Shown: piece after piece, positions 19,801 through 53,100 of the stretch
Numbering within the stretch: the stretch's first letter is position 1
Layout of the letters: each line of letters opens with the position of its first letter
DNA from: a virus
Taxonomy: Duplodnaviria > Caudoviricetes
Strand: one strand, 5' to 3'
Virus record (IMG/VR): IMGVR_UViG_3300028027_000068
Coordinates: 1 to 56,232 of that record
DNA: 56,232 nt
The notes under the pieces: generated by a model
Told to the model about the DNA's origin: nothing
The model's input: the letters and a program-made list of their open reading frames with translations, nothing else
The model's database searches: none
Translations under genes and position numbers: made by a program

Positions 19801-20031
19801 TCATTTGGAACCCCTTGATTTTTTGCTGTTAGCTTTAATCTTCTTAGCCAATTCTTCAACTGAGTTTTTGGCGCTAGAAAAGTTTAGCGCAACAGTGGCG
19901 TCTTCTGCCTGAACATCCTTAATGCCATTAGCTTCTATGTAGTCCATATAGGAATTACGCCAAAAACGTTGTACAGCGGCAGCCATTTGGTCGCCTTCTT
20001 TTTGGTTTTCTGGAGATTTAGCTGGGGTCAT
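19801..20031 (-). CDS. Hypothetical protein
   Basis: 76 aa, ATGA-coupled to the 1806 aa gene. Confidence 0.55.
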   Translation of the reverse strand: MTPAKSPENQKEGDQMAAAVQRFWRNSYMDYIEANGIKDVQAEDATVALNFSSAKNSVEELAKKIKANSKKSRGSK

Positions 20032-23000
20032 GGCCAGGTGCTTCCGGTTAGGTAGTTGGATAATTCGGGAAATGCTCTTGCGAGTATTGCTCGTTGATTG
20101 AAACTGAGCAAGTTTCTAGTCACTCTACTTGGAGAAAGTGCTGCAGTCAAAGTTTCTGATAACCATTCGGGAGGAGAGCTTGCTGCATAATCGCTGACGG
20201 AATCTTTAAGCATCATGTTTACAAAGCTCAGGTCAATACCGGCAGCAGACTGCCAACTTGGTTTGTTAAGCAGAGACAGAATAACATGCGCATCCTGGGC
20301 GTCTTGATTTTTAGGGTCTGCTTCTATGTCGAGTTTTGCTTTAGCTAAAGCGTTGTTGTGTATCGAGTGGGACGCCTCGTGCCGCAATACCGTCACAGGG
20401 CTACCCTCGTCAATAACCGCAGGCCTAGAGAACTTGCTCATTCTTTGTGTAGCAAGAACCTCGGTGTACCGCGTAATCATACTTAATGGGTCGTCTGGAA
20501 ATCTGTCTATGAAAAACTCCGGGCTGATTCCCCAATGCCCGCGAAGCAACAGTTCAGGGTCTTGGAGAGCATCGTTTACTTGTGCTCCCTTGGGAATAAA
20601 AGAACTACTACCAACCGGGAGTATTGCAGAAATACTACTGTTCATTAAAGTCACACCATTACCTGCTCCAGGCATGTTTTGTGCACGCACTTCTGAGTTG
20701 GGGAAAAACTTGGGCTTACCATCTGCTCCAGTTATTTCTTGAGCAGAGAAAATTGCAAACTGTGGAAATCCGTAAGTGTTGGCAAGAAGGTACATTTCCG
20801 GAGAGGCCATATACATCATCTCAATGTTGTACTGAAGCTGCTGTAAATGCCATGGGTTAAAATCCGGAGCGTAGTTGTTTAACCTTTTAGACAGGTATGT
20901 TTCTGCAGATATTCTTTGCTCGGCATTTACCATTGCTATGTACTGAGCCTTAGTCATCGGGCTTCCATCTGGATTTATGGCAGCAGGGTCTGCCTTCCAC
21001 TTATTGCTTTGGTTAATGTCGGCTAGGCGTTTAATAAAAACGGGATTGCGCTGAACATAGTTTTGCATTGCTCGTTCGCGAAGCGACTGCATGTCTTGAG
21101 CTATGAGGCCTTTTGTTATTTCGCGTATGTCGCCTAAACGTCCTAGATATTTTTCTTGAACTTTTGTTCCCATAGAGCCAGTAATTTTGGAACTCCTGCC
21201 CAGGTTTTTTTCAAATGTTCCTGTGATGGGGTTAAAGGTTTCAACCTGCTCAAGGGTGATTTTTTTAACTTTTGTTCGCTGTCCGTTGCGCTCTATGTAG
21301 TCAGTTGATGTTCTAACATACTTAAATCTTCCTTGCGTCACCTGCTCTGTAACGTCTGTAACCCATTCGCCACCGATGTTAAATTGATGCATATACTCCT
21401 CACCAGCAGCATCGCCAGTACGGGCTCCTGGGACTATCTCTAGTATTACTCCAGGGGTTGTGTCACCATCTACGCCAATTGCATACATTTTTGCTGTTTG
21501 CAGGTCTGAGGTAAAAGCCGACAACGGCAAAGTTATTATTTCGCCAGCTGAAAGATTCATCACCTGGTCCCCGGGAGTAACGTTTGAAAGCCCTCTATAT
21601 ATAGGGCGCATGTTCACTTCTTTACCACTATTAATGTAATTAAGACCTATGAAAGCATCACGAATAGCCCTACGAGCATCGTTCATTTCCGAACGAGAAA
21701 TATTCGGCGTTGTTCCGTTGCCAAGAAGGTCGTGAACGTGTGTGCCTTCATCGTCTCCCATGTATCCAGCAGAGCTTGGAAGAGGTTCACCCATTAGTGC
21801 AGCAGAAGCAAGACGCATGCCGTAGTTGCCGCGCCATCCAACCCATTCATCGTATGCATCTACCCACTCTGTATATTCATTAGGGTTTACATCAAAAGTA
21901 AAATCCAAATCTCCGTACTTCACGGTGACTGTTGAGTTTTTATTATCTTTTTTGACTACATCTATAGATGTTGTAATCTTTTTACCCTTAGTGGGATTTT
22001 CGTTAGCCATTGCGCCAGTAATAACTCCCGGCGTTTTGATTGTTTCACCACGTGCTGGAGGAGTGTCGGCATCTGTTTTTGGCAGTTTTGACCTTCTGTT
22101 TGCCCTAAGGGAAGACGGCTCAGTAGGCAGTACTGAAGAACTTGTAGCTCTTCTTCGTAGCTCTGCTCTGGTAAAGTTTTTTCCACGCCTAGGTGGAGTT
22201 ACTATCTCTGTTGGGTCAACGGGGTACTCGTCCTGAAATGCAAACCCACCTTCGTTTCTTCCTCCCGGTCGTGTTCTTGCCAGTACGTATTCATTAGCCC
22301 CAGTCGTGCTTAGGATTCTGTTTACAGTAGATACAGATATCTTATTACGTGCTGCAATTTCTTTTTGAGTAAACTGAGTAGACAAAAAGTCACGTACTAC
22401 GTCACGTTCTAATTTTTCTTTAGCGGCCCACCAGTCTGAAGACACTGCTCCAGATATTTTTCTTGTCTCTCTGCGTGCTGTTGTTTTGTTGGTCTTTGGC
22501 TTTGGTTTTCCAATTGAGCCTGACAGCTTTTGTTGAGCTGATTCTCTACGAGCCATAGCTTCGTGATATTTAGTCCAGTCCCTACCTCTGTCATACATTC
22601 CTCCATGATAAGCAATTGATTCCTCGCTGTAAGCAGGACGAGCTCCTAAGACTTTTATTTTGTCTTCATCAAAAACAATTACGTGACTTGACTCTGCTCC
22701 ATCTCCTGGAGTGTTAATCCAAACAATTCCATCGTGACCAGCGGCTCGTGCTAAAAGATTTAATTCTTGTGTGGCCAACCCGCCTGCATCAGAATGCATA
22801 TTTATTTTTCCGCCATTAACTATTTCTTCATAGTATTTAATTTGCTCAGGGCTTGGTTCGTATTTAAAGGTTATTTTTACTCCAGCAGGAGAATCGTCTC
22901 CACCTTTAGCCACGTCTAGCAAGAGTTTGTACAAACCGCGTACTTTTTCTGTACCTCCTAGTTGTTTTATGTACTCTTCTTGCCTTTCCTCGAGTGTGGC

Positions 23001-25448
23001 AGCCCTATTTTTTCTTTCTTTAGAATCATCCGGATACCATTCATGTGTGGTATTTTCGTCAGGCTCAAGTACTCCGACATTTACAACTATGGGGTTTTCT
23101 AGCTCGAGTCTTGCCACGAGTCGTCTTATTTTCTTCAGCTCCTCTGTCGAGTTGCGGTGTAAATCTTCACCATAAGCTTCGGCCATATAGGGGTCGCCAT
23201 CAAAAGAAAAATTTCCGCCTCGGCCAAAATTTCCAGAACCTCTGATTTCGTACTTCTTTGATTTTATTATTGATTCAATGTCTGCTTCACTAGTTGAATG
23301 TAGGCCTAGTATTTTTACCGGCTTTCCAGTTTCTAAGTCGTAAGAATATACTGGATGATTTTTGTAATTGACAGAAGGCTCAGCGTGCCCTTCTCCAAGT
23401 TCAGGGTCGTCTACAACAGGCCAGCCACCCCAAAAACCAATACTCTTGCCAACTGCTTCGGCATCTAAGTCTAATTTAGGGTCGTCTATATAATCAAGAA
23501 TTGACTTTGTTGGTTTCGGAGTTGTGCCAATAGAGCCCTTTAATCCTGTTGAAGACCTAGGTATTGTCATCCGTCCGTCTTCATCTGGCAGTCGATACTT
23601 GACTAAGGTTTTAAGCACCTCTCCTGGCTTAGAATTTCTTTCTTTCGCCAACTCGACAACCGTCTTGCCGGCGTCATACATGTCAAGTAGTTCTTGGTCA
23701 TCTTTTGGAATCTCGATTGATGAATCCCTGGTTGCAGTTGTTCTCTTGCGACCTTTTTGCGCAGACACAATATTGGAAACCCTATTTATGGTCATTCCTT
23801 CTATTTCTGCTATTTCTCTAGTCGTCTTTCCGGCATTGTGTGCGTCAAGGATACGCTTAGCTCGTTCGGGATTCGGCTTCCAACGCGGCTCTTCTGTTAT
23901 TTCGCCACGTTTGCGTGCTTGATTTAGGGCCCAGCCAACTCCCTGTACGGTTGTTCCTTCTGCTTCGGCTATATTCTTGCGACTTTCACCAGCTTTATAC
24001 CTTTGAACAATTCGCTTATCACGTTCTGTCATCTGTGCTGTTCTTGCCATTGCTCCAGTAACGCGAGAAGGTTTGGGGACACGTGGTGCTCCCGGTCTTT
24101 CAAAACGTGTTGCGTCTTGTACTTTTCCGTCGCCGTCGGCATCTATAGCATTAGGGTCAAACCGGTCAGGGTTATTTAGTTTGCGTAGAGACTTTTCATC
24201 AACGGGAACGTTTGCGCGCTTTTTTACAAAAGACGAATGCATTTGTCCTGTTTCCACAATATTGTTATCCACCATTGAGTGGAGATATGCAACCGCACGT
24301 TTTCTGATTGTTTTAGGCTCTTCAGATAGTGATTTTGTCTTAGGTCGAGAGTAAGTAATAGGGTCATCTATGCCGATTATTTGCCTCATTGTGTCTCTGT
24401 CTATCCACGCATCACGTTTTTCTTGGATTATTTCCCAAATCAATCTTTTGGCTTCTTGGGCTGTTTTAATTCCTCTTTTTTCGTCAACTTCTTCCCATGC
24501 CGCAAGTTGAGATGTCATTATTCTGTCAAAGAACCCCCATGCTACTTGGTCGATTATTTCGTCATCGCCTTCACTCACTGTTTCAGCAGCATGAACCATT
24601 GCTAAATAGTTAGCCCACTCTCCGTGCCTATCAAAGCCACGCCCGGTTCCAAGATGTCCGTAAAAGTCATGCATGACTTGTACGTATTCCATCTGATACA
24701 TCTCTGTGCCAAACATCATGTCGTTTGAAAGTCTTAAAAAACGTTCGTATATTGCATCAAATGGATGGAAAGGCGTACCTGGCATATATTGTTCGCCAAG
24801 AGATTCACGCATATCGCTATATTCGCTGCGTGGAAGAAACAGGCCATTGTCGGCTTTTTTGTACAACTTCTCACTGATTGTTTCGGCGTACGCGCGTTTC
24901 TCATTTTTGTTTTCTTTAAGATTTTCAAGAATAGCTTTATACATTCGTATTCTTGCTTCAGACGAGGGAATCCTTACGTTAGAAAAATCCCCATCAAAAC
25001 CAATCAATTCTCTTATCTCGGGGATAGGGGGAGCAACGATTGTAAAAATACCATCAGGTGACGGTTCGATTTTTATACCATTGACTAGGTCCATTATTCG
25101 TTTTTCGGACCATTGTCCTTTTGGGGTTACGTTTCTAATTCTAGAACGTTCAAAAAGTTCACGGTCTCCGCCGGCCATCTCAAATATAACCGAAGGTATT
25201 TTTTCCGGCGCTAAGTCATATAAGGATGGGTCCTTGATTAAAGCATCTATTATTTCAGGCACGGGTTGATTAATGTCAAAAGGCTTTGACATAGCCCCAC
25301 TAATAGTTCTTGCTGTTGCAGGGCGCTCAAACCTAGTTAGCTCTTGAACAATGCCGTCGTTGTCTCCATCTATGGCGTCCGGGTCGAACGCTTCTAATCT
25401 AGATGCACGACCTATTGTTGGAAGTTTTTTAATAACGCGGCGTGGCAT
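20028..25448 (-). CDS. Giant polyvalent protein: two FDP tags, zincin-like domain, HTH repeats, two ADP-ribosyltransferase-like domains, C-terminal HExxH peptidase
   Basis: MHDFYGH; HST...FGRG.NF...GHDGI...VIVF; YRGL...LSAFT...EQV; RHEASH...SDYA...PEWLSE. Confidence 0.75.
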   Translation of the reverse strand: MPRRVIKKLPTIGRASRLEAFDPDAIDGDNDGIVQELTRFERPATARTISGAMSKPFDINQPVPEIIDALIKDPSLYDLAPEKIPSVIFEMAGGDRELFERSRIRNVTPKGQWSEKRIMDLVNGIKIEPSPDGIFTIVAPPIPEIRELIGFDGDFSNVRIPSSEARIRMYKAILENLKENKNEKRAYAETISEKLYKKADNGLFLPRSEYSDMRESLGEQYMPGTPFHPFDAIYERFLRLSNDMMFGTEMYQMEYVQVMHDFYGHLGTGRGFDRHGEWANYLAMVHAAETVSEGDDEIIDQVAWGFFDRIMTSQLAAWEEVDEKRGIKTAQEAKRLIWEIIQEKRDAWIDRDTMRQIIGIDDPITYSRPKTKSLSEEPKTIRKRAVAYLHSMVDNNIVETGQMHSSFVKKRANVPVDEKSLRKLNNPDRFDPNAIDADGDGKVQDATRFERPGAPRVPKPSRVTGAMARTAQMTERDKRIVQRYKAGESRKNIAEAEGTTVQGVGWALNQARKRGEITEEPRWKPNPERAKRILDAHNAGKTTREIAEIEGMTINRVSNIVSAQKGRKRTTATRDSSIEIPKDDQELLDMYDAGKTVVELAKERNSKPGEVLKTLVKYRLPDEDGRMTIPRSSTGLKGSIGTTPKPTKSILDYIDDPKLDLDAEAVGKSIGFWGGWPVVDDPELGEGHAEPSVNYKNHPVYSYDLETGKPVKILGLHSTSEADIESIIKSKKYEIRGSGNFGRGGNFSFDGDPYMAEAYGEDLHRNSTEELKKIRRLVARLELENPIVVNVGVLEPDENTTHEWYPDDSKERKNRAATLEERQEEYIKQLGGTEKVRGLYKLLLDVAKGGDDSPAGVKITFKYEPSPEQIKYYEEIVNGGKINMHSDAGGLATQELNLLARAAGHDGIVWINTPGDGAESSHVIVFDEDKIKVLGARPAYSEESIAYHGGMYDRGRDWTKYHEAMARRESAQQKLSGSIGKPKPKTNKTTARRETRKISGAVSSDWWAAKEKLERDVVRDFLSTQFTQKEIAARNKISVSTVNRILSTTGANEYVLARTRPGGRNEGGFAFQDEYPVDPTEIVTPPRRGKNFTRAELRRRATSSSVLPTEPSSLRANRRSKLPKTDADTPPARGETIKTPGVITGAMANENPTKGKKITTSIDVVKKDNKNSTVTVKYGDLDFTFDVNPNEYTEWVDAYDEWVGWRGNYGMRLASAALMGEPLPSSAGYMGDDEGTHVHDLLGNGTTPNISRSEMNDARRAIRDAFIGLNYINSGKEVNMRPIYRGLSNVTPGDQVMNLSAGEIITLPLSAFTSDLQTAKMYAIGVDGDTTPGVILEIVPGARTGDAAGEEYMHQFNIGGEWVTDVTEQVTQGRFKYVRTSTDYIERNGQRTKVKKITLEQVETFNPITGTFEKNLGRSSKITGSMGTKVQEKYLGRLGDIREITKGLIAQDMQSLRERAMQNYVQRNPVFIKRLADINQSNKWKADPAAINPDGSPMTKAQYIAMVNAEQRISAETYLSKRLNNYAPDFNPWHLQQLQYNIEMMYMASPEMYLLANTYGFPQFAIFSAQEITGADGKPKFFPNSEVRAQNMPGAGNGVTLMNSSISAILPVGSSSFIPKGAQVNDALQDPELLLRGHWGISPEFFIDRFPDDPLSMITRYTEVLATQRMSKFSRPAVIDEGSPVTVLRHEASHSIHNNALAKAKLDIEADPKNQDAQDAHVILSLLNKPSWQSAAGIDLSFVNMMLKDSVSDYAASSPPEWLSETLTAALSPSRVTRNLLSFNQRAILARAFPELSNYLTGSTWP

Positions 25449-25714
25449 GATGACAATTACTTTGAAACTATTCCGTCTGGAATTACAGCAAATCTACATT
25501 TACCATTCGGTTCAATAGCTGCAAGCTCGTCTATTTCTTTTGAAAAATCATTCATTTTATTACTCCGTAAGAAAACTAATACAACATTATCCCATGTGGA
25601 CAAAACCCCCGGGCACTCTTGTTAAACAAGAAATCCCCCGCCTTCAATAACAAGGACAAGGGATTTCCTGGATAAGCCCTAAGGTAGGCATGTTTTAATT
25701 ATGCCATAGATAGC

Positions 25715-25751
25715 AAAAACCCCGCCCACACCCGAAGGTATGAGCGGGGTT
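25715..25751 (-). terminator. Rho-independent terminator after the major capsid gene
   Basis: ccccgctcatacc-TTCG-ggtgtgggcgggg-ttttt (cUUCGg loop). Confidence 0.88.
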
Positions 25752-25765
25752 CCGCTTAATGCTTA

Positions 25766-27094
25766 TTAGGCTGCTACTGGAGCGTTGTCGAACGTTACAG
25801 AGACAAATGACTCTGGACGCTTGACAGCAAGCGCGAGGCGCTGCTCAGCAAGGATGACAATCGCGTTACGCACGAAGAAGTCTGCATGCTGTTCCGAAAT
25901 ACGGATGCTTGCTTGTTCACGGTCGTAAAGTTGAGCACCTGTACCGAATGCACCGATAAGAGCCTGGCCTACTGGCATTGCTGGAGTGTCCACGACAGGA
26001 ACGCGCCAAAGCTTTGGCTCGCCACCCATTGCAACCGAAACTGCGATGAGGTACTGACCGTTTGAGTCCTTGGTAAGTTCGATGTCTTCCCAGTCCTGTG
26101 GGTTCAAAACGACACCAGTTGGTTCGTAGTAAGCCAACAGGGCAAGAGTTGCGGCACGGCGGATTGCATCAGCCTTTGTGTCTGCAACTGGTGCTGTTGC
26201 ACCGTCTGACCAGTCGTATGTCTGAATACCGGTGGTGTTCAAGATTCCGTTAAGGTTTTCGCCAATGCCGTCACCTTGAAGGATTTGGTAATCCTCTTGG
26301 AGACGAAGTCCGTAAAGGAGTTCATTGTCGATGATTGAACGCAATTGTGGCTCGTCAGCAAGCACGTTGCGGTGCGCTGCTTCCCAGTGAGCGAGTGTGC
26401 GGACAGGAGCCTGCTCACCAACGAACTGGAATGACGATTGTGGCTTAGCAGCAAATGCTGCACCATTACGCTCAGCTACGGTTCCGGCGTTGTTTACTGC
26501 AGTGGTACCTGGTGTTGTGAAACCGAGCATACGGAAGTACTCGATAACAGCAGCAGTTGTGGTGCGTGCAGGGAACAAGTCGCGAACGCGCTTTGTACGT
26601 GTTGGAGGCGTGACCATAGGGTCACGCTGGACTGTGCCGAATGAACCAGGGTTACCTGAAGGAAGCGCCGAGTAGACGTCCTTTACGTTGAATCCGGCAT
26701 TTGCAACACTGCTGTTCAATACGAACGGTGAAGCCATGTTTGCGCCATTACGACCACCCTGAAGGGACTTGAACTCTGGTGAGTCAAGGAACATTTGACC
26801 AAGAGACTTGGCTTCTGCTGGACGGAATTGTGCACTTGCATCAAATGAGCTGGATACTGAGCTCTGTGGCTCTGAGCCCCACTGCTCAACTGACTTCATT
26901 TGCTCAAGGCCATCAATGAGGCTCTTGATTTCGCGGATGTCCGACATATTGCGGTCGAACGCTGACTTCTGCTCAGAGGAAACGACAACAATGCCGTCCT
27001 CTATCTTAAATGAGTCTGCGATGGTCTTGTTGTCGGCCATCTTTACTCGGAGTGCGCTCTGAAGCTCACTCAATCTTGATTCGTCAAATGACAT
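25766..27094 (-). CDS. Major capsid protein, HK97 fold with N-terminal delta domain
   Basis: AE....KPQS, TLAHW, LADEPQLRSIIDNEL, ILQGDG.GENL.GI, F.RN...ILAEQRLALAVKRPESF; AGGAG RBS. Confidence 0.95.
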   Translation of the reverse strand: MSFDESRLSELQSALRVKMADNKTIADSFKIEDGIVVVSSEQKSAFDRNMSDIREIKSLIDGLEQMKSVEQWGSEPQSSVSSSFDASAQFRPAEAKSLGQMFLDSPEFKSLQGGRNGANMASPFVLNSSVANAGFNVKDVYSALPSGNPGSFGTVQRDPMVTPPTRTKRVRDLFPARTTTAAVIEYFRMLGFTTPGTTAVNNAGTVAERNGAAFAAKPQSSFQFVGEQAPVRTLAHWEAAHRNVLADEPQLRSIIDNELLYGLRLQEDYQILQGDGIGENLNGILNTTGIQTYDWSDGATAPVADTKADAIRRAATLALLAYYEPTGVVLNPQDWEDIELTKDSNGQYLIAVSVAMGGEPKLWRVPVVDTPAMPVGQALIGAFGTGAQLYDREQASIRISEQHADFFVRNAIVILAEQRLALAVKRPESFVSVTFDNAPVAA

Positions 27095-27222
27095 GATTTT
27101 CTCCTAATAAGGTTGTTGAAAAATTGAATGACCTATTGGCTCAGGTCAGCACCCAGCTTTTAGTTCTCTTACAAATCTAACACGGCATTTTTGCCCCTAG
27201 TGAAACTATTGTAAGTATTTAG

Positions 27223-27411
27223 CTAGAAGACTACGTTTGCGTCTATGCCAGATTTGTACATCTTGTCGTATTCCGCGCGGAGTTGACGAAATAGTTCTTT
27301 GTTTTTTTCTGTTTCTTCTATGCCGGCATCAGCAAGGCTTGTATTTCGCGCAGCTGCAAGTGCTATTGACTCAACATTTATTGCGGTTTTTAAAATTTTT
27401 GAATCTGCCAT
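27223..27411 (-). CDS. Small hypothetical protein after zeta domain (possible antitoxin/chaperone)
   Basis: MADSKILK ORF begins right after the zeta stop. Confidence 0.45.
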   Translation of the reverse strand: MADSKILKTAINVESIALAAARNTSLADAGIEETEKNKELFRQLRAEYDKMYKSGIDANVVF

Positions 27412-27413
27412 GG

Positions 27414-28415
27414 TTACCATTTTGCCGTTCTTGGAGCCGTTGACCACCAGTTGGTACCCCCAAAGAATACAGCCAATGCTGTTTCGTCGTGTTCAAACTT
27501 TAAATCTTCAGCAAGGGATAGTTTCAAGATAATTCTTGGGTTCGTTGGGTCCGTAGTGTCAACAAGTGTTAAATCGTCTAAATATCCACTTCTCCAAAGT
27601 TGTGGAATTATGCCCTGAATATTACTGGCCATGGTGCTCACTATGCCGGAAGGGACTCCACGTCCAGTTTCTTCTTCTCGCTTTTTAACTCTTTGAACAA
27701 GTGTTTGAGTTGGAGCTAGGAAGTAATTTGCACTTATTCTGTATCCAGAATCGCGCATATCAGAAATTGTTTGATATCCGTTATTAAACTGGCCGCTTGT
27801 GTCGTAGATAATTGGTAACGCATTTGCTGCTGCATTAACTCTCAGTTCCTCAGCAATGTTTCTCGATTCCTGGTGAACGTATGAAGCCCCACCAGGCGTA
27901 AGGGTTGATAGGTGTCCCTGATACTCGGGTATTATTAATTTTGCATCGTCCGGGTCAACCATTACGCTGCGTCCATAAAGGCCGTCAATCACTCTTGCGG
28001 CATCTCCAGGGAGACTGTCTCTGTAAATTGTTCCCTCGGATATTTTTTCTGCCCAGTCCCTGAAAGTGCTCTTCATACTTGCCGACGAACCGCCGAGTAT
28101 GGAGAAGACCTTTTCATCTACATCATCAACTCTAAGTAATTTTACGCGAAGTATTTCGGCTTCTATATAGGGCACCCATATCTCTTTTTTTCTTACTGGG
28201 TCATTGGACGGCGTTCCACTTGGAAATATACGCATCATTGTGTCGAGGTCTGATTTGGTCATCACGTCCGGATGAGGTAAACCAAGCTTGTCATGAAGTG
28301 AATAGTCTGGTTGCCACTTACCGGAACGTGAGTTCCCGGGTGATTTGCCCTTACTTAAACCGCGACGTACGTTGTCGCGCATCTGGTCAATCTGCTCTTG
28401 ACTATAAAAAGCCAT
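27414..28415 (-). CDS. Zeta-toxin-family P-loop kinase domain, probably expressed as a -1 frameshift extension of 28502-30589
   Basis: LGGSSASMKST Walker A-like, VDPDDAK.IPEY, HQES, IYDTS, R..R....GRGVP; frame is open upstream to 28520. Confidence 0.8.
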   Translation of the reverse strand: MAFYSQEQIDQMRDNVRRGLSKGKSPGNSRSGKWQPDYSLHDKLGLPHPDVMTKSDLDTMMRIFPSGTPSNDPVRKKEIWVPYIEAEILRVKLLRVDDVDEKVFSILGGSSASMKSTFRDWAEKISEGTIYRDSLPGDAARVIDGLYGRSVMVDPDDAKLIIPEYQGHLSTLTPGGASYVHQESRNIAEELRVNAAANALPIIYDTSGQFNNGYQTISDMRDSGYRISANYFLAPTQTLVQRVKKREEETGRGVPSGIVSTMASNIQGIIPQLWRSGYLDDLTLVDTTDPTNPRIILKLSLAEDLKFEHDETALAVFFGGTNWWSTAPRTAKW

Positions 28416-28454
28416 AGCTCCAGACAGTTTTGGTTTTCTTGAATTTGGACCAAT

Positions 28455-28514
28455 CGCCCGACTTACTGCCGCTTCACTCTGTGCTGCCGGCAGGTCAGGC
28501 GTTATGCTTTTTTT
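28455..28514 (-). promoter_or_regulatory. Candidate programmed -1 ribosomal frameshift signal
   Basis: In-frame A AAA AAA (28514-28508), 6 nt spacer, hairpin cgcctgac-ctgccg...cggcag-taa-gtcgggcg (28501-28455). Confidence 0.7.
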
Positions 28515-45700: not shown

Positions 45701-47906
45701 TAGTTTTAAGAGGCCCGGCTCCTCCACCCAGCACATAAGCGTCAGTAAGTGCCGTAAAGTCAATCCAATCATTTAAGTTTGCGGTTGACAGTAGGTCTAG
45801 CCAGTCTTGTTCTCTGGAAGACATTCCTCCGGCAGGTGTTCTAGATGAATTAAATATTTCTGGCTTTGTTAATAGTGATTGTATAAATCTGTTATTTGTT
45901 CTTTGATTTTGGGGAATTGCTGCAAGTATTTTTTTAATTTCATCTGGTGAATAGGCTGAAAAAATAGACTGAACGGTGTTTTTTCTTCGATTATCCCTAA
46001 GTCTATTTCCTCTTGCTACGATGTTGTCAAAAGTTTGGTCTGCGTAGTCTTCTGCAACCTGGTCGGTTATATCATCAATATTTCTATCGGGAATACCGTT
46101 TCTATCTGGGTCTCTAAATGTTCTTGCTGCTCTAGCAATTCTTCGTCGCACTCCTGGTTTATCTATTACGCTGGCGTTGTTTTCAGGCTTTGTTATGTCT
46201 ATCCCGAATACGCCCATCATTAATTCATCAAGGTCTGGGTGTGGACGTTCTCCGTTTGGTATACGCTGACTATTTAGTTCGTCAATAGCTTGTTGTACCA
46301 TCTCTGGAAATTCTCTTGCCGTTACATAGAATTCCGCTCTTGCTTCGTTGTCTAAAAAATCACCATTACGGTCTTTTGCATGTGCGTATTTTGAACCTGC
46401 AAGATGTCTTAGTAAGTCGCCTATTTCTTTGGAATATATTCCACTATCTGTAATCATCTTGTCAGTAATGTCACTATAAAACTTATCCCATATTGATTCT
46501 TTTTGTGCGTCTGTAGTTGCAGTGCTTAAATCAGTTTTGAGCTCGCCATACTTTTCATAAAGCCAATGCTGCTCAGGAGTTATTAGGCCAGCATTGAGCG
46601 CTCCATCAATATCTCCATTAGAAATATCTTCTATTCTTTGTATAGCGTCGTTGTAGTCCGTGTCGTTGATATCTATGCCAAAACGTTTAAACATTTCATT
46701 GAAGTCGGTCAGGTGTCCAAATTCGTGCACCCCAACCCATGAGCCAAAATCTCTAGGACTTAAAGGCTCTTCGGCGTTACTGCTTGCGCCAATACCTAAA
46801 TATTCTGGAGTCTCTGATATTTCGTAATATAGTTCTGTAAATTTTCTAGGATGATACCTAAACGTGACAAACGGGGTTCCTAAATCTTTTACCTCATTGG
46901 GGGATGCCTCAACTACAAAGCCTTCGTTGGTAGCTGCAAGAGTTTCATCAAACTGCCAAAAAATTTCAGAATTCTCTGCGACCTCTCTGTTTGTTAAGGC
47001 CTCGTACAGCATAGAAGTAACGAACGCTTCCCGTAGGTCTATATAGTCTGCCAGCTCTTTGCCAAATAGTCCATTTGTATCGTTTAGAAAAGTATCTAAA
47101 CTTTGTTCGTCCATTTTTGGATACGCACGCATCATTGCTTTTTTGGCGTTAATTGCAAATCTTACGTTTCCAAATGTCTGAGCGACAATTTTTTCTTTTC
47201 TTTTTTGGTTACGCTTAAAAGTTAAAAATCTTTTGGCTCCTTCATTTCCGCCAAATAGCATTACGCCGTTGTCGTCAATTCTTTCGCCAACATTTAGTCC
47301 AACTGCTCCAGATAAGTTTCTTTTACCCGAGTTTTTGGCAGCAGACCGTACTGCGTCAGCGGCATCTCCAGCAAGTGTTGCGGCAGATGGGACCATACAG
47401 TTAGACATTTGAAGGTCCGTAAACTGGTTAGCCGCCGGTGTTCCGGCAGGGCAACGAAGTTTACCCATGTCATCGACAGGAATACCTCTCCCTCTGGCAA
47501 CCATGGCTATCAGCGATGTTGCTCCAGGCATGTTGTTGATGGTTCTTCCAAGCACAGATTTGGAAGCCATTAGGCCTATTTCGTTAAGGCTTCTTTTTCT
47601 TTGCGGTTTTTCATCGTCTAGAAATTTGGAGTTAGCAGAGGGTTCAAGGCTCAAGGAATCTAGTTTTATGACTTTTCCTGGAGGGAGAAGCGGAATCCTG
47701 TCTCCTTCTTTCCAGTTTCTTACCCAGTGCTGGAACTTTGTCTTTGCTGGTTTTTGAGGTTTTTTTTCGTCTTTAATATCAGACGTGTTTTTTTCAGCTT
47801 TATAGCGTGAACCAGCACCAAAACCATTTAAATTAAATTCGTCAGAAGAAACGTTGTTAAGTAGTCGTTGTTCAATGTCGCTTAACTTTTTACGCGGTTC
47901 AGCCAT
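42765..47906 (-). CDS. Giant polyvalent protein: RCP motif, two HExxH zincin domains, R-S-E type ADP-ribosyltransferase-like domain
   Basis: RCPAGTPAANQF; VHEFGH...SKYA...EARAE; FRGL...LSAFT...EVV; IHESIH...SRYG...EINAE; start MAEPR after GGAG. Confidence 0.75.
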   Translation of the reverse strand: MAEPRKKLSDIEQRLLNNVSSDEFNLNGFGAGSRYKAEKNTSDIKDEKKPQKPAKTKFQHWVRNWKEGDRIPLLPPGKVIKLDSLSLEPSANSKFLDDEKPQRKRSLNEIGLMASKSVLGRTINNMPGATSLIAMVARGRGIPVDDMGKLRCPAGTPAANQFTDLQMSNCMVPSAATLAGDAADAVRSAAKNSGKRNLSGAVGLNVGERIDDNGVMLFGGNEGAKRFLTFKRNQKRKEKIVAQTFGNVRFAINAKKAMMRAYPKMDEQSLDTFLNDTNGLFGKELADYIDLREAFVTSMLYEALTNREVAENSEIFWQFDETLAATNEGFVVEASPNEVKDLGTPFVTFRYHPRKFTELYYEISETPEYLGIGASSNAEEPLSPRDFGSWVGVHEFGHLTDFNEMFKRFGIDINDTDYNDAIQRIEDISNGDIDGALNAGLITPEQHWLYEKYGELKTDLSTATTDAQKESIWDKFYSDITDKMITDSGIYSKEIGDLLRHLAGSKYAHAKDRNGDFLDNEARAEFYVTAREFPEMVQQAIDELNSQRIPNGERPHPDLDELMMGVFGIDITKPENNASVIDKPGVRRRIARAARTFRDPDRNGIPDRNIDDITDQVAEDYADQTFDNIVARGNRLRDNRRKNTVQSIFSAYSPDEIKKILAAIPQNQRTNNRFIQSLLTKPEIFNSSRTPAGGMSSREQDWLDLLSTANLNDWIDFTALTDAYVLGGGAGPLKTIDAVRKERKRVKLEKRNSRQAGTASNKLTKKITGSISNPRISKLSGSMGWVNTSSLPPWSNEPNAPKVENRVSAVLSPVENSEKALLQWGEDSFEIDTSIDPNELWKSEAFNEWATFHGNFAMRYVSAMLMGQDVPMSEGYGSETLDEGLKSIHDELVSGSMKGVDAAKQKRVRQEIEYAIAALRTLNLPENSKPYEIFRGLTGVPDDASILNLKKGDTFELPLSAFTASEDWAYEMGEFTENGQGVILKVLPGAHSTPTNAEYIQNPTETFDNYFEVVTAGRFELIEIDDVEGEQTVITLRQTDTFDPLTSKYSPVKRPKQKTSADKNPETDTEIDGATGFERPAPRREVSRLTGKIKTSVSSPVKYGLSEDKEVKKFDGFDHTAALESVNKIIREIETRHGKIKTVGDAAKALKTVFKKVRINHMGENHGPDGKSELGDRLTKSEQAAIAGILYTLNNSPHLKSRRLILSHEISDGSFSINGSTAIMPRIGQNGGPDFPEYGIRINIPFNENVAGAIIGEDMNSIDGVGNQVAKALLLHAQTLSPGQERDSYEQAALVSFFVGTSIHESIHALDMPQINDKIHKAAMQEDPSLQTERARIDHIFKQAGTRDEVLKTFVMRDAIDDVTSSNAMRAIGASMEYEANGPEEFLKNGRLSIDEVNKMKAEIEARRDEASSLLNDPLLDLGEQLQAMLIAQSMQSMIDNLDNTISQLTTLTDDLEENINNGTPEQSIMGTLHRSVYDRGLNYLSDVFPPGHPGYGTDVDLTVDPAGNMVALIDGDGNPVKELKATPEYMESTIISFIQAKDFHSASENAGFSLAGLKDLLDDANIERDTNGNESFSLTNQIQGIDPAQVDDLVDTLGQAYVAALSAEHWAPGIDDEAKWELIDWMRAISRYGSLTHFRYRNGLTTPSKQSIISAEINAELITSLILGAGAARTPMSSQVRGAIINILDWVYGGDSWKSILPDVSLEALKVK

Positions 47907-47974
47907 TGCTACTCCATATATTAACAACTACATCATTCAATTGTATTTGCCCGGAGCGCACCGGGAAAGTATAA

Positions 47975-48250
47975 CTAGGCTGTTTCAGTGTCCGACGAGA
48001 CTGGTGCCTCTTCAACGACTGGTGCCTCTTCAACGACTGGAGCTGTAGCTTCTGTTGCTTCACTGGTTTCAGCTTCTGCATCTTTTGCCTTCTTAGCTTT
48101 TGCCTTTGATTCTTTTTGTGGTTCTGCAGATTCGCTCAAAAGAGAGCCGATGCCGGATGGCGCTGCTTTGTCTTCCTTGTTTTCAATAGCAATATCTGCT
48201 TTGTTTGTCTGCTGAAAAACGCCTGTTGGGGCTGCATTCTTGTGCTGCAT
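47975..48250 (-). CDS. Low-complexity acidic protein
   Basis: APVVEE tandem repeat (18 bp unit); GGAG RBS. Confidence 0.6.
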   Translation of the reverse strand: MQHKNAAPTGVFQQTNKADIAIENKEDKAAPSGIGSLLSESAEPQKESKAKAKKAKDAEAETSEATEATAPVVEEAPVVEEAPVSSDTETA

Positions 48251-49596
48251 TATTTTTCTCCCTCTATGCCTTGCTCTGCTGTGAGCATTTCAAATTCAAG
48301 CAAATCATTAAGGAAAGATTCTTCTTCAGACTTTCCTTCCATCTTCGCTTTGTTCTTGTCTTCTGCTGGAACCCAATTGGTAGGGATTAATTCCTCGAGG
48401 CCAAGGTCTAGTGCGCGCTTCATGATGTGCGCCTTAGCTGCTTCTTTGTCTTTTGCTCGGCCATATGCTTGAACAGCATTGCGAAGGTCTGATTCATCCT
48501 TGATTGGGTACGAACCATCTGACATCGCGCTTCCGCTCTTTGCCATCTGGTCACGTGACTCTTCGTTATAAGCACGCTTGAGTGCAATCTCTGCTGCTTC
48601 GGCCTCGATGGACTCTGCTTCGTCAAGTGTGTACTCGTCGTAACCAAGAAGCTCACCGTCAAGGGAAACGAACACGTCGTACGACTTGCCGTCAAGACCC
48701 TCAATCTCTACCGCGTATGCATCAAAGCCTTCAAATACGTCTGGTTCTACAGCAACAACGTCACCGAATACGCTCTTTGTTGCAATCTCTGCAGCTTCTG
48801 AGAAGCTAATAAGGCTTTGGTTCTGCAGCCCGGACTTAACGTTCAAGACGTCCGCATTAAGCATGTGCCATCCCATTACCTCGGCTGTTTCACCATCAAA
48901 GAATATTTCAATTGGCTTGCCGTCTTTACGTTCAACATCAACAATGAAAAGGTCTGCATCGTCCGAGTAGCCGGAGTCAAGAACCTTGCCGCTGAACATG
49001 TCTTCAGCAATGCCTTCAATCTCTAAAATTCCAGGCATTTTTCCTTCGGGCATACATCCGCCTGGGCAGCTGTCGCAAACAGATTCACCCATTGGGTATA
49101 CCTTGCGCTCAAACTGACACATAAATACTTCGTCAGTCTCCATGTCTGCGGACTTGAATCCCATCGAGTTCAGGCGACGCATACGCATTTTCTTGCGCAT
49201 ATTTTGCATTGCTTGCGTTTCTTCTTCTGCTGGGTCCATTGACATCTTGGCTTCTTCTTCATCCATCGGCATGTCAGCTTCTTCTTCGTCCATGGCCATT
49301 GGCTTCTTCTTTTTGATGGGGAACATTTGCTCTTCTTCCTCATCGTCCATCATTGGAGCGGCGGCTTTGCGACTATTCTTCATAGGCATTTCTTCTTCGC
49401 CCATTTCATCTTCCTCGTCTGCCGCGTCTTCAAGGTCCATGTCTCCCATGTCCCCTTTAGCCATAACAGCCATTGCGCCGCACTTACCGCAGGCCTTGTC
49501 GCCAGCTTTAAATCCGCACTCAGACGCGTCAACGCCTTTAGCGCAGCTAGCTAAGCTTCCATCTGCGTTTAGTTTTACGATAGCTTTTTCCTGCAT
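48250..49596 (-). CDS. Acidic head-module protein (scaffold-like) with PepSY-like domain and DGSYPI...YGRA domain
   Basis: Met/Glu-rich tract; ISFSEAAEIA...GDVVAVE...YAVEI...DG...V.V...GE; AMSDGSYPI....DLRNAVQAYGRA; start MQEKA after GGAG. Confidence 0.65.
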   Translation of the reverse strand: MQEKAIVKLNADGSLASCAKGVDASECGFKAGDKACGKCGAMAVMAKGDMGDMDLEDAADEEDEMGEEEMPMKNSRKAAAPMMDDEEEEQMFPIKKKKPMAMDEEEADMPMDEEEAKMSMDPAEEETQAMQNMRKKMRMRRLNSMGFKSADMETDEVFMCQFERKVYPMGESVCDSCPGGCMPEGKMPGILEIEGIAEDMFSGKVLDSGYSDDADLFIVDVERKDGKPIEIFFDGETAEVMGWHMLNADVLNVKSGLQNQSLISFSEAAEIATKSVFGDVVAVEPDVFEGFDAYAVEIEGLDGKSYDVFVSLDGELLGYDEYTLDEAESIEAEAAEIALKRAYNEESRDQMAKSGSAMSDGSYPIKDESDLRNAVQAYGRAKDKEAAKAHIMKRALDLGLEELIPTNWVPAEDKNKAKMEGKSEEESFLNDLLEFEMLTAEQGIEGEK

Positions 49597-49835
49597 TATG
49601 GCTCCTTGTGTTGGATTGTCTTCATAAGACAACCTTTTTGATTTGTGCACCCTGCACACGGTTCGTAGCGCTTTTCGCCCGTGACTATGCACTGATACTT
49701 ATGTTGAATATTCGCTAATTGCCTTGAAGTAGCATAACCCATTGGAGAGCGTCCCTGGGTGTACTTCTCGTCACGAATACCGCCATTAACTGGCTTTGAG
49801 GATGGCCGGCCAGAAGGCTGACCGGCCTTAATCAT
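49596..49835 (-). CDS. Small Cys-containing hypothetical protein
   Basis: C...CAGC...C; coupled in operon. Confidence 0.55.
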   Translation of the reverse strand: MIKAGQPSGRPSSKPVNGGIRDEKYTQGRSPMGYATSRQLANIQHKYQCIVTGEKRYEPCAGCTNQKGCLMKTIQHKEP

Positions 49836-50170
49836 TTTAAATAGTTATTCATTCCTTTTACGGCTAGCTGAATAGCTTCGATTGTGTCCTCGGCAAGGTA
49901 GTCAGCATCAGTGATGGTGATTTTTCCTCCCGAAACAGTTGCATCAATGCCGTGGTAGTCAAGGACTGGGTCAATGATTGATTTAACCTCTCTAATCATT
50001 GATGGTGATGCTTTTAGCATTATTTGACTTGGCTCTTGTGAGCCGTCCGTGCCGACGGTTGATGGCATTAAGGAAAGAGTTACTTCGTTCCCCACAGGCT
50101 TAGTCATGACAACCTGGCCAGACTTGACCTCTATGTCCAGGGATTGGTTTATTGATATAAAAGCTTCCAT
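49832..50170 (-). CDS. Hypothetical protein
   Basis: 112 aa; VLDYHGI resembles VCDYHGI in the protease tail. Confidence 0.6.
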   Translation of the reverse strand: MEAFISINQSLDIEVKSGQVVMTKPVGNEVTLSLMPSTVGTDGSQEPSQIMLKASPSMIREVKSIIDPVLDYHGIDATVSGGKITITDADYLAEDTIEAIQLAVKGMNNYLK

Positions 50171-50180
50171 TTAATTACCC

Positions 50181-53100
50181 TTAATACTCTTCGTCTTTTT
50201 GTAAATTCTTTATATGAAGATTTAGGTTCTCTTTTAGCTGACGATAAGTCTGCTCGGTCTGATTAGCCACATCCCATAAATTCTGCAGGCGTGCAGCTTC
50301 TTTTGTAGCTTCTCTTTTATTCATGTCTTCCCAGCGCATCAGATGTTTAATAACGCCCTCTTCATCTTGCCAGCTGAGTCTTTCGGCAAGAGCATCGTTC
50401 CAGTCGTTATTTATCCCTCTAACCATTTCTTTCCATCTGGTTTTCAGGTCGTAAAGAGCATCTTCTGCTTCTTCTAGCGACAGGTCGTCAAACTTGGTGT
50501 CTGTAACTTTGTCATGCATATCCCAGGCTTCGTCGCCGTCTTTAGCATTAAGTACCTCATCTAGGGCTGAGCCAGGATTTCTCGCATCGACGTCTGGATT
50601 TTTCTTTTTTGCCCCCATGGCCCCTGAAATTCCGCCCCTGCTATCAGTGTCTCCACCCATGCGGTTGTCGTCCATTTCTGCGTTTTGGTAGTCACGTCGT
50701 AATTTAGCTAACTGACCTTGCAGACCTCGTATTTTGTCTTCCGGTAGATTGAAGTCTCGGGCTTGGGAGGATGCGTCTTCTGGGTTTCCAACCCTTTCGG
50801 TTATGGTAAGGCTATCAAATAGCTCCCGAGGAAGACCGGTACGTTCAACCATTCGTTCAATGGCGGCCTTTTCCCAGTTCTGAAGTTTAGGTGGGCGTTT
50901 TCCTGGCTCGTCCCCGCTCATGGCTCCTGAGAGACCAGCTCTTCTTCTGGCGTTTCTGGCAATTGTGAGTTCGTATTCCATTGGGGTCATCCCGGCAATC
51001 ATCGTTCCGCCGCCGCCGCCATCTATTGGAGCAACACGCGGTGTATCAGCCATGTCTCTTTGGAATTTTTTTCTTTGTGCTGGTGTCATGTTTTTAAGAA
51101 TGTCATCCATACTCTGTGGCTTGTCTGAGCTCATGGCTCCTGAGAGACCAGCCCTCTGTGGGACTCGTGGCTGTGACGGAACAGAAGGACGGGCTGGGGT
51201 TGGCGTAGAGGGAACGGATGGCTTGATTGGTACATCTTCTCTACGAGGAACCTGGATTGGTTTAACCTTGGGCATCATTTGAGGCGCTTTAGGAGCATCA
51301 GGGCGCTGAAAGGTTGTTCCCTCTTGAATAACCCTGTCTCCGTCAGCATCTATTGCGTTGGGGTCGAACCTATCCATTCTATTGGCTCCCATTTGGCCAA
51401 TGCGGCGAAGTTTTCCACCTACACCCTTTGCACTGAAACCTTCAGACATGTTTTGAGCAATATTCATTACTGCTTCGTAACCCTCTTCAGACAATGAATC
51501 GATAAACGGTACGGCGACTCCATCTTCAAGCTCTTTAAGCTCGATGCCGTGGTAGTCACATACGGTCTTTACTAATTCCATAGCTGCGGACTTTTCATCA
51601 CCAAGTGCACGAACAAACAGGTGGGCTCCTGGGGTCTGTTCTTTAAACATACTCCAGTCAATACTCGGCATTGAGGTTCCACATGTTCCGCCGCAGCCGC
51701 AGCCGCCGTGAGGTTTCTTTTCTACGTCTTCCATCATTTCACGATGTCCGTGTGCATACTCGCGTTCATCTTCGTCATCCTCCATGTCTGGGAAAGCGTG
51801 GCCTGGCATAATTCCGGCAGGCGTATTTACTGGTAAATAAACAGTTTCAGCACGAACCTGGTGCGGTTCACCAAACATAAATTCATCACCGTCAAAGTAG
51901 TAGGTGACCCTCATGGTTGTTGACTGTCCACCGTTACTTATGTCAAATATGACCATGTCTCTGTCGGCTGTTCTGATTTTCACAGGAGAGCTAAATCTTT
52001 CAGAAAGAGCTTTGGCAAGGTCTGCCATTCGCCCAACCGAGGTATTGGACATCGACTCCGGCGACTCGTATATAGCACTTTTTTCAGAGACTTGAGAGTT
52101 TTCATCCGTAATTGGGCCACCAACTACCCAAGCATCACACGTGCGAGAAGATGCGCACTTAAAGTCAAACGCTTCGCAGTACCCAAGCTCGGCGGCGTTA
52201 ATTACATCCCAAGCACTGTCACCAAGCTCACCGCCGGCTGCAAGGCCTTTTTGAATGCAGCTTTCCATGTCCGATGTCTTAATGAATACTGCGCAATTTC
52301 CGCATTTTTGTTTCTTTGCTTCAGTCGTATCGACATCCCAGCGAGATGCTTTTTTATTCCAAAATTTTTCATTTGCTTCTTTTGGATTAAGTGGGCCATA
52401 TCCAGCCGTCTCAATAGCTTTTTGTCTATTTTTAATATTTACGGAAACATCAGTTGTTGCTACTGGACACTTGTTTCCACCTTCAGCAGGGTCGGCTTTT
52501 GTTTTGTTTTTGCCATATCTGTCAAGCATTCTGCGACCTTTGGCAGCTAACTCTGCTGCGTCTTGGCGGTTTTTGGGTGCTGGCTCACCCCACGCTACGG
52601 CTGCAAGTGCAAGACGTGTTGGTTCCCCGTCTTCGTCGACCAGCGGGCCTGATGGATTTGTATAGAACCGAGTAAGGAAAGAACCCTTACGGCGCATCTT
52701 TTCAGGAGTGTCAGCAGGTCCTTTTACTCCGGGCTTCAGGTTTGCGCCTTCAGTTTCCTTAAAGTACTTGCGTCCTGCTGGAGTTAGTCCGCCTTTGGGG
52801 TCCTTTAGTTGTTGGTCCGCCTTTATGGATATGGTTCCAGTCAGTTGGTTTGCGCCATGAAGAACTGGAGAAACTTCATAAAGTTCCACTTCTTTAAGCA
52901 TATTGGCTTGCTGAGATGGGTCGAATACTGCATCAAGGGTTTTGTAACCAATAGACCATTCTTGTTCTTCGCCAAAGAACACAACGCTATTAAAGGCTTC
53001 CTTGCCTCTTTCGGACTTTAAGTTGAACTGAACACGTGCATATAGGCCGCCGATTCCAGCACGCTTCATCTTCATCGGAAGGCGCGGGTCGTTTGGCCCA

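Follow-up and report, generated by a model that had tools for sequence, protein, structure and literature searches.

Several viral systems use short recurring peptides as sites for their own proteases. Viral polyproteins are processed at the sites of the picornavirus 3C and potyvirus NIa proteases, and the herpesvirus assemblin recognizes the consensus (V/L/I)-x-A|S. Short peptides also load the cargo of encapsulins; these cargo-loading peptides are terminal, usually single, and have a G-S-L core. In phage T4, gp21 is described as cleaving after I/L-x-E (PMC12991175), and in SPN3US, according to the account of its head proteins, gp245 cleaves 14 sites in nine head proteins with one motif and several cuts per propeptide, and removes its own C-terminal propeptide by self-processing (PMC10052503). 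Iyer et al. 2017 predicted that the polyvalent proteins of phages are processed by embedded zincins or assemblin-like peptidases; their passages on processing name the enzymes but no site (PMC5512222). Here, we have analysed a stretch of 56,232 nt (hereafter the window) from an uncultured lake virus of the Caudoviricetes (IMG/VR record IMGVR_UViG_3300028027_000068), and describe a short peptide motif, [LIV]-[ST]-G-x-M-[GSA], with x being Ala or Ser in this window, that recurs in the linkers of its giant head-module proteins.

We argue that this motif could be a processing signal in the linkers of prohead cargo, with the S78 protease as the favoured enzyme, and our analysis gives this reading about an even chance. 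In the mechanism that we propose, the polyvalent proteins would enter the prohead by means of a conserved tag of ∼25 residues, RFDPNAIDGDxDGxVQExTxFERP, and the phage's own S78 (HK97/assemblin-type) prohead protease, which carries a tag and three sites in its tail, would cut at the motif. The scissile bond would probably lie just behind the invariant glycine (P3 = Leu, Ile or Val; P1 = Gly; P2' = Met), a placement suggested by analogy, as proteases of this fold tend to have a hydrophobic P3 and a specific P1. Cutting would remove or separate the tags and split the giants into single modules (Nudix, helix-turn-helix (HTH), ADP-ribosyltransferase (ART)-like, zincin-like, zeta and unknown ones), which would stay in the head and then be injected together with the DNA. 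We infer the cut itself, its register, the enzyme and the injection of the products, and S78 is the most likely enzyme by analogy and by its head-module context.

The locus resembles the prohead processing of T4, phiKZ, 201phi2-1 and SPN3US in that a protease is encoded in the head module and one short motif recurs in several head-associated proteins, where the sites follow an N-terminal leader, lie in accessible stretches and are multiple per protein; here, the tail of the protease has sites as well. The order of tag and site parallels the capsid-targeting sequence of T4 and its gp21 site. Unlike in T4, the protease is of the S78 (HK97) and not of the gp21 type, and the motif is based on Gly and Met and contains no Glu. 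The sites of the window would also go beyond the trimming of N-terminal propeptides, as they divide multi-enzyme proteins into modules, and the capsid and scaffold have no clean copy. A hydrophobic P3 and a tiny P1 would mirror assemblin. As in viral polyproteins, a short site is repeated at domain junctions and would be read by a virus-encoded protease, but the virus is a DNA phage and the substrates are virion cargo rather than a replication proteome. With encapsulin peptides the motif shares a short Gly-small-aliphatic core, a disordered stretch of cargo and the interior of an HK97-fold shell, but its copies are internal, multiple and accompanied by a separate tag. The proteins themselves look like the polyvalent proteins described by Iyer et al., being giant, multi-domain, encoded near portal/MuF and head genes, and built of Nudix, ART-like, zeta, HTH and zincin-like modules; in addition to what is described there (PMC5512222), the present sequences define a concrete junction peptide, which differs by lineage, together with an N-terminal tag. 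Head-protease motifs and polyvalent proteins are thus known already. What is new, in the literature searched (supplements excluded), is a Gly/Met junction code in S78-protease phages, together with the tag, the flavours of the motif and its use at effector junctions.

A sequence-only reading of the window had listed about 20 copies of the linker motif. All 22 hexapeptides that it named were found, on the minus strand, from nt 51146 (LSGAMS of the protease protein) to nt 21168 (ITGSMG of the 1806-aa protein). Proteins are named here by their length; seven copies are in the 1806-aa protein, three in the 695-aa, five in the 1088-aa, three in the 1720-aa and three in the 1058-aa protease protein, and one is upstream of the ATG of the zeta open reading frame (ORF):

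51129..51146, minus strand: motif LSGAMS, protease residue 738
50916..50933, minus strand: motif LSGAMS, protease residue 809
50613..50630, minus strand: motif ISGAMG, protease residue 910; from there on, L004 and L005 are homologous again
47298..47315, minus strand: motif LSGAVG, 1720-aa protein residue 205
45591..45608, minus strand: motif ITGSIS, 1720-aa protein residue 774
45555..45572, minus strand: motif LSGSMG, 1720-aa protein residue 786; twin of site 774, and homology to L003 stops at residue 779
34354..34371, minus strand: motif VTGSMG, 1088-aa protein residue 47; 7 aa past the tag, in the pLDDT<50 segment 35-52
33784..33801, minus strand: motif IDGAMS, 1088-aa protein residue 237; in the pLDDT<50 segment 236-244
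32773..32790, minus strand: motif IVGSVS, 1088-aa protein residue 574; at the edge of low-pLDDT segment 577-599 in the first model and within 560-592 in the second
32734..32751, minus strand: motif LSGSMG, 1088-aa protein residue 587; junction common to P0002, P0003, P0004 and P0006, and insertion point in L084
31648..31665, minus strand: motif LRGGMA, 1088-aa protein residue 949; in the pLDDT<50 segment 938-965
30248..30265, minus strand: motif VGGAMG, 695-aa protein residue 109
29894..29911, minus strand: motif LAGGIG, 695-aa protein residue 227
28742..28759, minus strand: motif LSGSIG, 695-aa protein residue 611
28410..28427, minus strand: motif LSGAMA before the zeta domain; the Met of the motif is the annotated start codon of the zeta ORF
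25287..25304, minus strand: motif ISGAMS, 1806-aa protein residue 49; 5 aa past the tag
24045..24062, minus strand: motif VTGAMA, 1806-aa protein residue 463; behind the internal tag, where homology to L091 begins
23526..23543, minus strand: motif LKGSIG, 1806-aa protein residue 636; homology to L091 stops at residue 645
22509..22526, minus strand: motif LSGSIG, 1806-aa protein residue 975
22440..22457, minus strand: motif ISGAVS, 1806-aa protein residue 998
22005..22022, minus strand: motif ITGAMA, 1806-aa protein residue 1143; module 1151-1437 recurs in L004
21168..21185, minus strand: motif ITGSMG, 1806-aa protein residue 1422

In the list, L numbers denote the fetched IMG/VR loci of relatives (160 in total), P numbers denote proteins of a protein library, and pLDDT is the predicted local distance difference test score. 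Three pairs form twin sites (574/587 of the 1088-aa, 774/786 of the 1720-aa and 975/998 of the 1806-aa protein).

The regular expression [LIV]xG[ASG][MIV][ASG] matched the five big proteins (6367 aa) 21 times, while 2000 residue shuffles per protein gave an expectation of 0.58 and never more than 4. The 19 other ORFs (8681 aa), among them those of the 1513-aa and 681-aa proteins, the portal, the capsid and the early genes, gave one match (LGGGVG of the ribonucleotide reductase) against 0.87 expected. In the comparison that had been proposed, the motif is thus enriched both over shuffled sequences and over the other ORFs with the early genes, and its absence from the untagged 1513-aa and 681-aa proteins is upheld, with no match in either. 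The basic nature of the flanks also holds, as Lys or Arg occurs among the five residues preceding the motif at 21 of the 22 sites (manual count). Synonymous codons for Leu, Ser, Gly and Ala vary from copy to copy at every position of the motif, so selection acts on the peptide and not on the DNA; a DNA-level repeat or an internal start signal was ruled out for the same reason.

To place the sites relative to folded domains, the 1088-aa protein was modelled with AlphaFold2 (AF2) as two overlapping halves from alignments of library homologues (mean pLDDT 79 and 76). It is the one protein modelled; its first whole-length alignment misaligned one domain, and two half-protein alignments were used instead. 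The models show at least five separately folded domains. All five motifs lie in or at segments with pLDDT below 50, between confident domains; ∼21% of all residues fall below that value. The overlay on domain boundaries therefore puts all five sites of this protein in low-confidence linkers, in line with the sequence-only reading. By a cruder measure, the content of order-promoting residues, 15 of the 21 in-ORF sites rank in the lowest quartile of the protein to which they belong. In a sequence logo made from 86 non-redundant sites of the window and of its relatives, the flanks abound in Gly, Ser, Pro, Arg, Lys and Asn and are poor in Asp and Glu, with acidic residues nearly missing immediately upstream of the motif.

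The sites also coincide with places where the proteins have been joined or split in evolution. The protease protein has 222 relatives in IMG/VR and the capsid protein 169, and 80 loci of each (∼21 kb) were fetched. When the five proteins were compared by BLAST with all ORFs of these loci and breakpoints were collapsed, a site was no more than 15 aa away from 19 of the 91 homology breakpoints, where 9.3 would be expected (binomial p 0.002). The 1088-aa protein aligns with L084 in two blocks, 193-584 and 589-1088, and L084 has ∼387 extra residues between the twin sites 574/587. In a search of 1.84 billion library representatives for homologues of the same protein, P0002, P0003 and P0004 match it solely over residues 1-584/588, and P0006 (557 aa) matches residues 582-1084 from its own residue 68 and has LSGNMG at residue 73. 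The standalone version of this module thus keeps a short leader and the motif ahead of it. Two stretches of the 1806-aa protein are found again elsewhere: residues 1151-1437, delimited by sites 1143 and 1422, within a different protein of L004, and residues 463-645, delimited by sites 463 and 636, in L091. L004 and L005 share the final 150 residues of the protease protein, from site 910. In L003, L004 and L005, what corresponds to residues 1061-1720 of the 1720-aa protein is encoded by an ORF of its own (711 to 722 aa), which carries a tag; the window counterpart of that junction has a vestigial tag and LTGKIK only.

The conserved tag occurs in five places in the window, at the N-termini of the 1806-, 1088- and 695-aa proteins, ahead of residue 463 within the 1806-aa protein, and at residues ∼663-688 of the protease protein. 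All four tags caught by the tag regular expression are followed by a motif within 5 to 50 aa, and the internal tag of the protease protein, which falls outside that expression, has a motif ∼50 aa downstream. Among the relatives, 12 tags were found; for 10 of them the core x-S-G-[SG]-[MVT] comes within the next 75 aa (manual count), and 2 of the 12 match the strict expression. The 1720-aa protein had been counted among the tagged proteins, which proved incorrect; it has no N-terminal tag and merely a vestigial internal one. The tag is probably a head-targeting or protease-recruiting peptide. The cassette of tag and Pro-rich spacer in the protease protein and the 695-aa protein is a duplication. 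The tag holds a DxDxDG-like loop, has no Pfam family, and is widespread among the polyvalent proteins of the library.

What the sites separate is partly known. Among the flanked domains named by the sequence-only reading, Nudix and zeta are confirmed by Pfam, ART and peptidase/zincin are no more than leads, and no HicA was found by Pfam on the inter-motif segments, PHROGs or PDB sequence searches. In the inter-motif segments, Pfam at E <= 1 gave no HicA, ART or peptidase family and only NUDIX and HTH, while Pfam on whole proteins added Zeta_toxin, S78 and DUF6321. Taken together, Pfam on 16 inter-motif segments, PHROGs on nine proteins and PDB searches with the 1806- and 1720-aa proteins yielded hardly anything except Nudix and HTH. 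In the 1720-aa protein, the segment 792-1060 is a good lead for an ART fold, with an Atlas score of 0.94 and 19 of 30 matches in the ADPrib_exo_Tox set. A weaker lead is a zincin module in residues 211-773 of the same protein, where an Atlas feature search pointed to metallopeptidase clusters (Wss1-like, M90, ATLF; score 0.85). HExxH occurs three times, as HEFGH at 401 and HESIH at 1311 of the 1720-aa protein and as HEASH at 1690 of the 1806-aa protein. The 1088-aa protein has, in order, the tag, domain A (55-221), the Nudix domain (245-487) with a helical part, a helical domain (597-703), an H..HxDWWxFP domain (750-919) and a C-terminal domain (966-1077). The fourth of these domains (window 31753-32262) is well folded, carries an invariant H..H.DWW.FP...S and has no Pfam family; it is also found standalone, at ∼165 aa, in many metagenomes. 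The best Foldseek match of the second model was Rv1873 (2jek), which is weak (E 0.22).

The copy upstream of the zeta ATG, listed above at nt 28410-28427 and present as had been stated, would be translated by way of a frameshift. The zeta frame opens at nt 28520, two codons ahead of a slippery heptamer in the last codons of the 695-aa ORF:

28508..28514, minus strand: slippery heptamer A_AAA_AAA, last codons of the 695-aa ORF, within the 19-nt frame overlap
28455..28501, minus strand: stem-loop, candidate frameshift stimulator, ∼6 nt downstream of the heptamer (-26.5 kcal/mol, z -3.2)

A -1 slip would give the product KKSITPDLP...RKPKLSGAMAFYS, and the motif would thereby precede the zeta domain. 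L084, the one available relative with this arrangement, has an identical heptamer and a hairpin of -32.1 kcal/mol (z -3.5) at positions 6612-6700, and its open -1 frame encodes ...GSGKIAGSMAFYP, with IAGSMA at the equivalent place, in different codons and upstream of the first ATG. In 20 of 22 BLAST matches to the zeta module, the domain is part of a protein of 411 to 2557 aa, which exceeds the standalone ORF in length; the others are the separate ORF of L084 and a truncated ORF at the edge of L116. The conserved peptide with changed codons and the presence of zeta in longer proteins suggest that the upstream stretch is translated and that the motif is selected there. A programmed -1 frameshift that joins the 695-aa protein to the zeta module is probable from these sequence features.

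Conservation in relatives extends these observations. With the core expression [LIV][ST]G.[MIV][GSA], and not counting the 66 copies of an unvarying LTGTIS with which the S78 domain ends, the gene strand of the relatives gave 165 matches (110 distinct contexts) against 29.7 expected, and the opposite-strand frames gave 16 against 19.3. The form of the motif changes among contigs, with the flavours LSG[AS]M, ISG[RK]M, GPVGxM and G[FL]AS. Position 4 is Ala or Ser in the window clade and Arg, Lys or Gln elsewhere, ISGRMG occurring four times in each of L060 and L065-L068. Agreement in the class of position 4 within contigs is 0.79, against 0.42 after shuffling, and none of 5000 shuffles reached it (17 contigs, 82 sites), a value that is inflated by shared descent and internal duplication. 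Some relatives have polyproteins of 3190 to 3970 aa that begin with the protease; those of L009 and L011 (3222 and 3190 aa) have nine and ten copies of G-x-M-[SAG], mostly GP[VI]GxM. Six contigs use G[FLM]AS[RST] in place of G-x-M. Among 161 contigs, at least three copies of G-x-M are found in 28 and at least three of G[FLM]AS in six, and none has both, so the two types are mutually exclusive. In the library, polyvalent proteins of up to 3688 aa have up to nine G-x-M copies, and the tagged proteins P0009-P0015 have GLAS[ST]TG behind the tag. That the flavours change in concert within contigs would be explained by one shared trans-acting reader. A bolder extension, which we regard as doubtful, is that the motif is a private and fast-evolving cleavage code, in which related lake phages with near-identical protease and capsid rewrite all their cargo junctions in concert.

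The protease favoured as this reader is encoded between the portal and capsid genes. Its Peptidase_S78 domain (5.8e-10) spans residues 34-176 of the 1058-aa protein, which ends in a helical tail and carries the three linker motifs at 738, 809 and 910; the His block (WGHNW) and the Ser block (EWSIGY) are invariant across 31 sequences. A complex prediction of S78 residues 1-182 with a 36-aa twin-site linker scored 0.00, which is evidence neither way. At the end of the S78 domain, LTGTIS (window 52830-52847, protease residues 172-177) directly precedes a variable insertion of 0 to 60 aa. It fits the loose expression and occurs in 66 relatives, as LTATLS in some of them; it was left out of the counts because it stays constant despite the changes of flavour and is inside the Pfam S78 profile. 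From its sequence, LTGTIS is possibly an autocleavage site, or it may simply be structural.

Several observations weigh against processing at the motif by the S78 protease. Across linker flavours, the S78 domain keeps 74-95% identity, which implies that its specificity is tolerant at the variable position or that another reader is involved. The major capsid protein has no match to the motif expression. Near-invariant in 80 relatives (71-94% identity) is a capsid block at residues ∼107-121 (window 26730-26775), EFKSLxGG(R/K)NGANM(P/A)SPF, at the expected boundary of the delta domain and N-arm; it resembles the motif loosely, and from its sequence it is a candidate maturation site. The acidic 480-aa protein, a putative scaffold or head-assembly factor, has no clean copy either, and hence the usual proof, a site shared by capsid and scaffold, is missing. 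No motif was found in the ∼21 kb fetched for some relatives, among them L026, L033 and L036, nor in the portal-to-capsid proteins of Gordonia phage Gray, whose capsid protein is 50% identical and which offered no proteomic precedent either. Fewer than three copies of either type are present in 127 of the 161 contigs, many of which are short fragments. In the 1088-aa protein, the low-pLDDT linkers 142-155, 488-499 and 704-748 have no motif, which means that the motif marks some junctions and not all flexible stretches. As for the claim of the sequence-only reading that cleavage releases single effectors from polyproteins, enrichment, the position in linkers and at junctions, the order of tag and site, and conservation among relatives fit it; a clean copy in capsid and scaffold is missing.

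The lack of a motif in capsid and scaffold would fit an enzyme that is specific for cargo, and the motif could then be cut by a zincin-like metallopeptidase module within the polyvalent proteins, in the head or after injection. The three HExxH motifs of the 1720- and 1806-aa proteins and the Atlas lead (0.85) for residues 211-773 speak for such a module, and Iyer et al., where they discuss these domains, argue that they autoprocess polyvalent proteins (PMC5512222). On the other hand, no Pfam peptidase family was found in the HExxH segments, L026 has a HEAAH module yet no motif in the 21 kb fetched, and the occurrence of the motif behind tags, in the tail of the S78 protein and in protease-headed polyproteins points to the head protease. 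We consider a zincin unlikely to be the reader.

We hold it similarly improbable that the motif is left uncut and serves as a multivalent docking peptide that pins the linkers to the interior of the HK97-fold shell, the scaffold, the portal or the DNA. By the logo, an extended strand would expose [LIV]-G-M on one face with the variable residue between, and twin sites would allow bivalent binding. The core G-[SA]-[LMIV] resembles the G-S-L core of encapsulin cargo-loading peptides, and the GP[VI]GxM flavour has an aliphatic residue directly before Gly, as those peptides do. Docking would also be consistent with a capsid protein that is very conserved (72-94%) while only the exposed motif position varies. 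Against docking speak the separate conserved tag, which already resembles a targeting device and is regularly followed by the motif, the sites marking gene fission and fusion junctions, and the standalone P0006, whose ∼70-aa leader and motif follow the propeptide pattern of cut head proteins. Very improbable, in our view, is a motif with no specific reader at all, arising as a by-product of Gly/Ser/Ala-rich hinges or as a relic of duplicated linker cassettes. Its flanks are indeed of low complexity and rich in Gly, Ser and Pro, and the tag and spacer cassette shared by the protease and the 695-aa protein is duplicated, but shuffling the residues of the same proteins gives 0.58 matches against the 21 observed, Gly and Met are invariant where flanks and codons differ, the flavours shift in concert, and opposite-strand frames show no excess.

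The genes concerned belong to a head module on the minus strand, from nt 55687 down to 20028. The source record is a 56-kb fragment with a CheckV completeness of 38%, and the left part, on the plus strand, has replication and nucleotide genes (SNF2 helicase, primase-helicase, class II ribonucleotide reductase and ThyX). By capsid protein, the closest cultured phages (∼50% identity) are Brevibacterium phage Cantare and Gordonia phages of the Gray/GMA6 group. The order of the head module is a portal-MuF fusion, the 1058-aa protease protein, the acidic 480-aa protein, the 1720-aa protein, the 681-aa and 1513-aa proteins, the 1088-aa Nudix protein, the 695-aa protein, the Zeta-toxin-domain ORF, the HK97-type major capsid protein and the 1806-aa HTH protein; the giants thus lie between the portal-MuF and capsid genes and also directly behind the capsid gene.

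53441..55687, minus strand: portal protein with MuF-like domain, 748 aa (Pfam Phage_portal 5.2e-52, Phage_Mu_F 2.4e-09; 0 matches to the motif expression)
50181..53357, minus strand: 1058-aa protease protein (S78 at residues 34-176, DUF6321 at 185-256, internal tag at ∼663-688)
42765..47927, minus strand: 1720-aa polyvalent protein (HEFGH module 211-773, ART-like module 792-1060, vestigial internal tag ∼1075-1090, HESIH module)
42445..42768, minus strand: 107-aa ORF with a basic N-terminus (weak motif-like ILGAVS at nt 42646-42663; an uncertain member)
31243..34509, minus strand: 1088-aa polyvalent protein (tag first; Pfam NUDIX 1e-15; AF2 models and alignment)
28502..30589, minus strand: 695-aa tagged protein (tag and Pro-rich spacer cassette homologous to protease residues ∼650-745)
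27414..28520, minus strand: Zeta-toxin-domain module (Pfam Zeta_toxin 8.7e-12; frame open from nt 28520, first ATG at nt 28415)
25766..27094, minus strand: major capsid protein, HK97 type (Pfam Phage_capsid 1.1e-45)
20028..25448, minus strand: 1806-aa polyvalent protein (N-terminal tag, internal tag before residue 463, HTH modules 469-635 and 1004-1142, C-terminal HEASH module)

The untagged 1513-aa and 681-aa proteins (window 35213-41796), which lie amid the cargo genes, have no Pfam or PHROG match and no motif. The acidic 480-aa protein (window 48250-49692) has a conserved C-terminal block, G.AL[PS]DGSYPI.DE.DL.NA..A.GRA, that recurs as a 168-aa ORF in L009, L011 and L056; its SGSAMS was ruled out as a site, as it belongs to this different block (G.AL[PS]DGSYPI). 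A Cys/His-rich 214-aa protein (window 41804-42448) is, in L026, part of the C-terminal extension of the protease (L026 9971-, ORF residues ∼510-590), which is another sign of free fusion and fission among the pieces of the head module.

If the motif is cut, it would provide a concrete rule, open to test, for the conversion of giant polyvalent proteins into many separate injected enzymes by phages that have HK97-type proteases. The mature products, i.e. the start and end of each effector, would be defined, the cargo proteins of metagenomes would be recognisable by their junction code, and the tag and site would be usable for loading foreign proteins into such capsids. The lineage-specific flavours would then be a natural experiment on the co-evolution of a viral protease and its substrates. 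Decoy loops of CBASS are reported to detect prohead-protease activity (PMC12991175). If the cleavage code were indeed private to each lineage, it could stop cross-processing during co-infection, could outpace host sensors that use such decoy loops, and could make effector modules swappable as ready-made cassettes.

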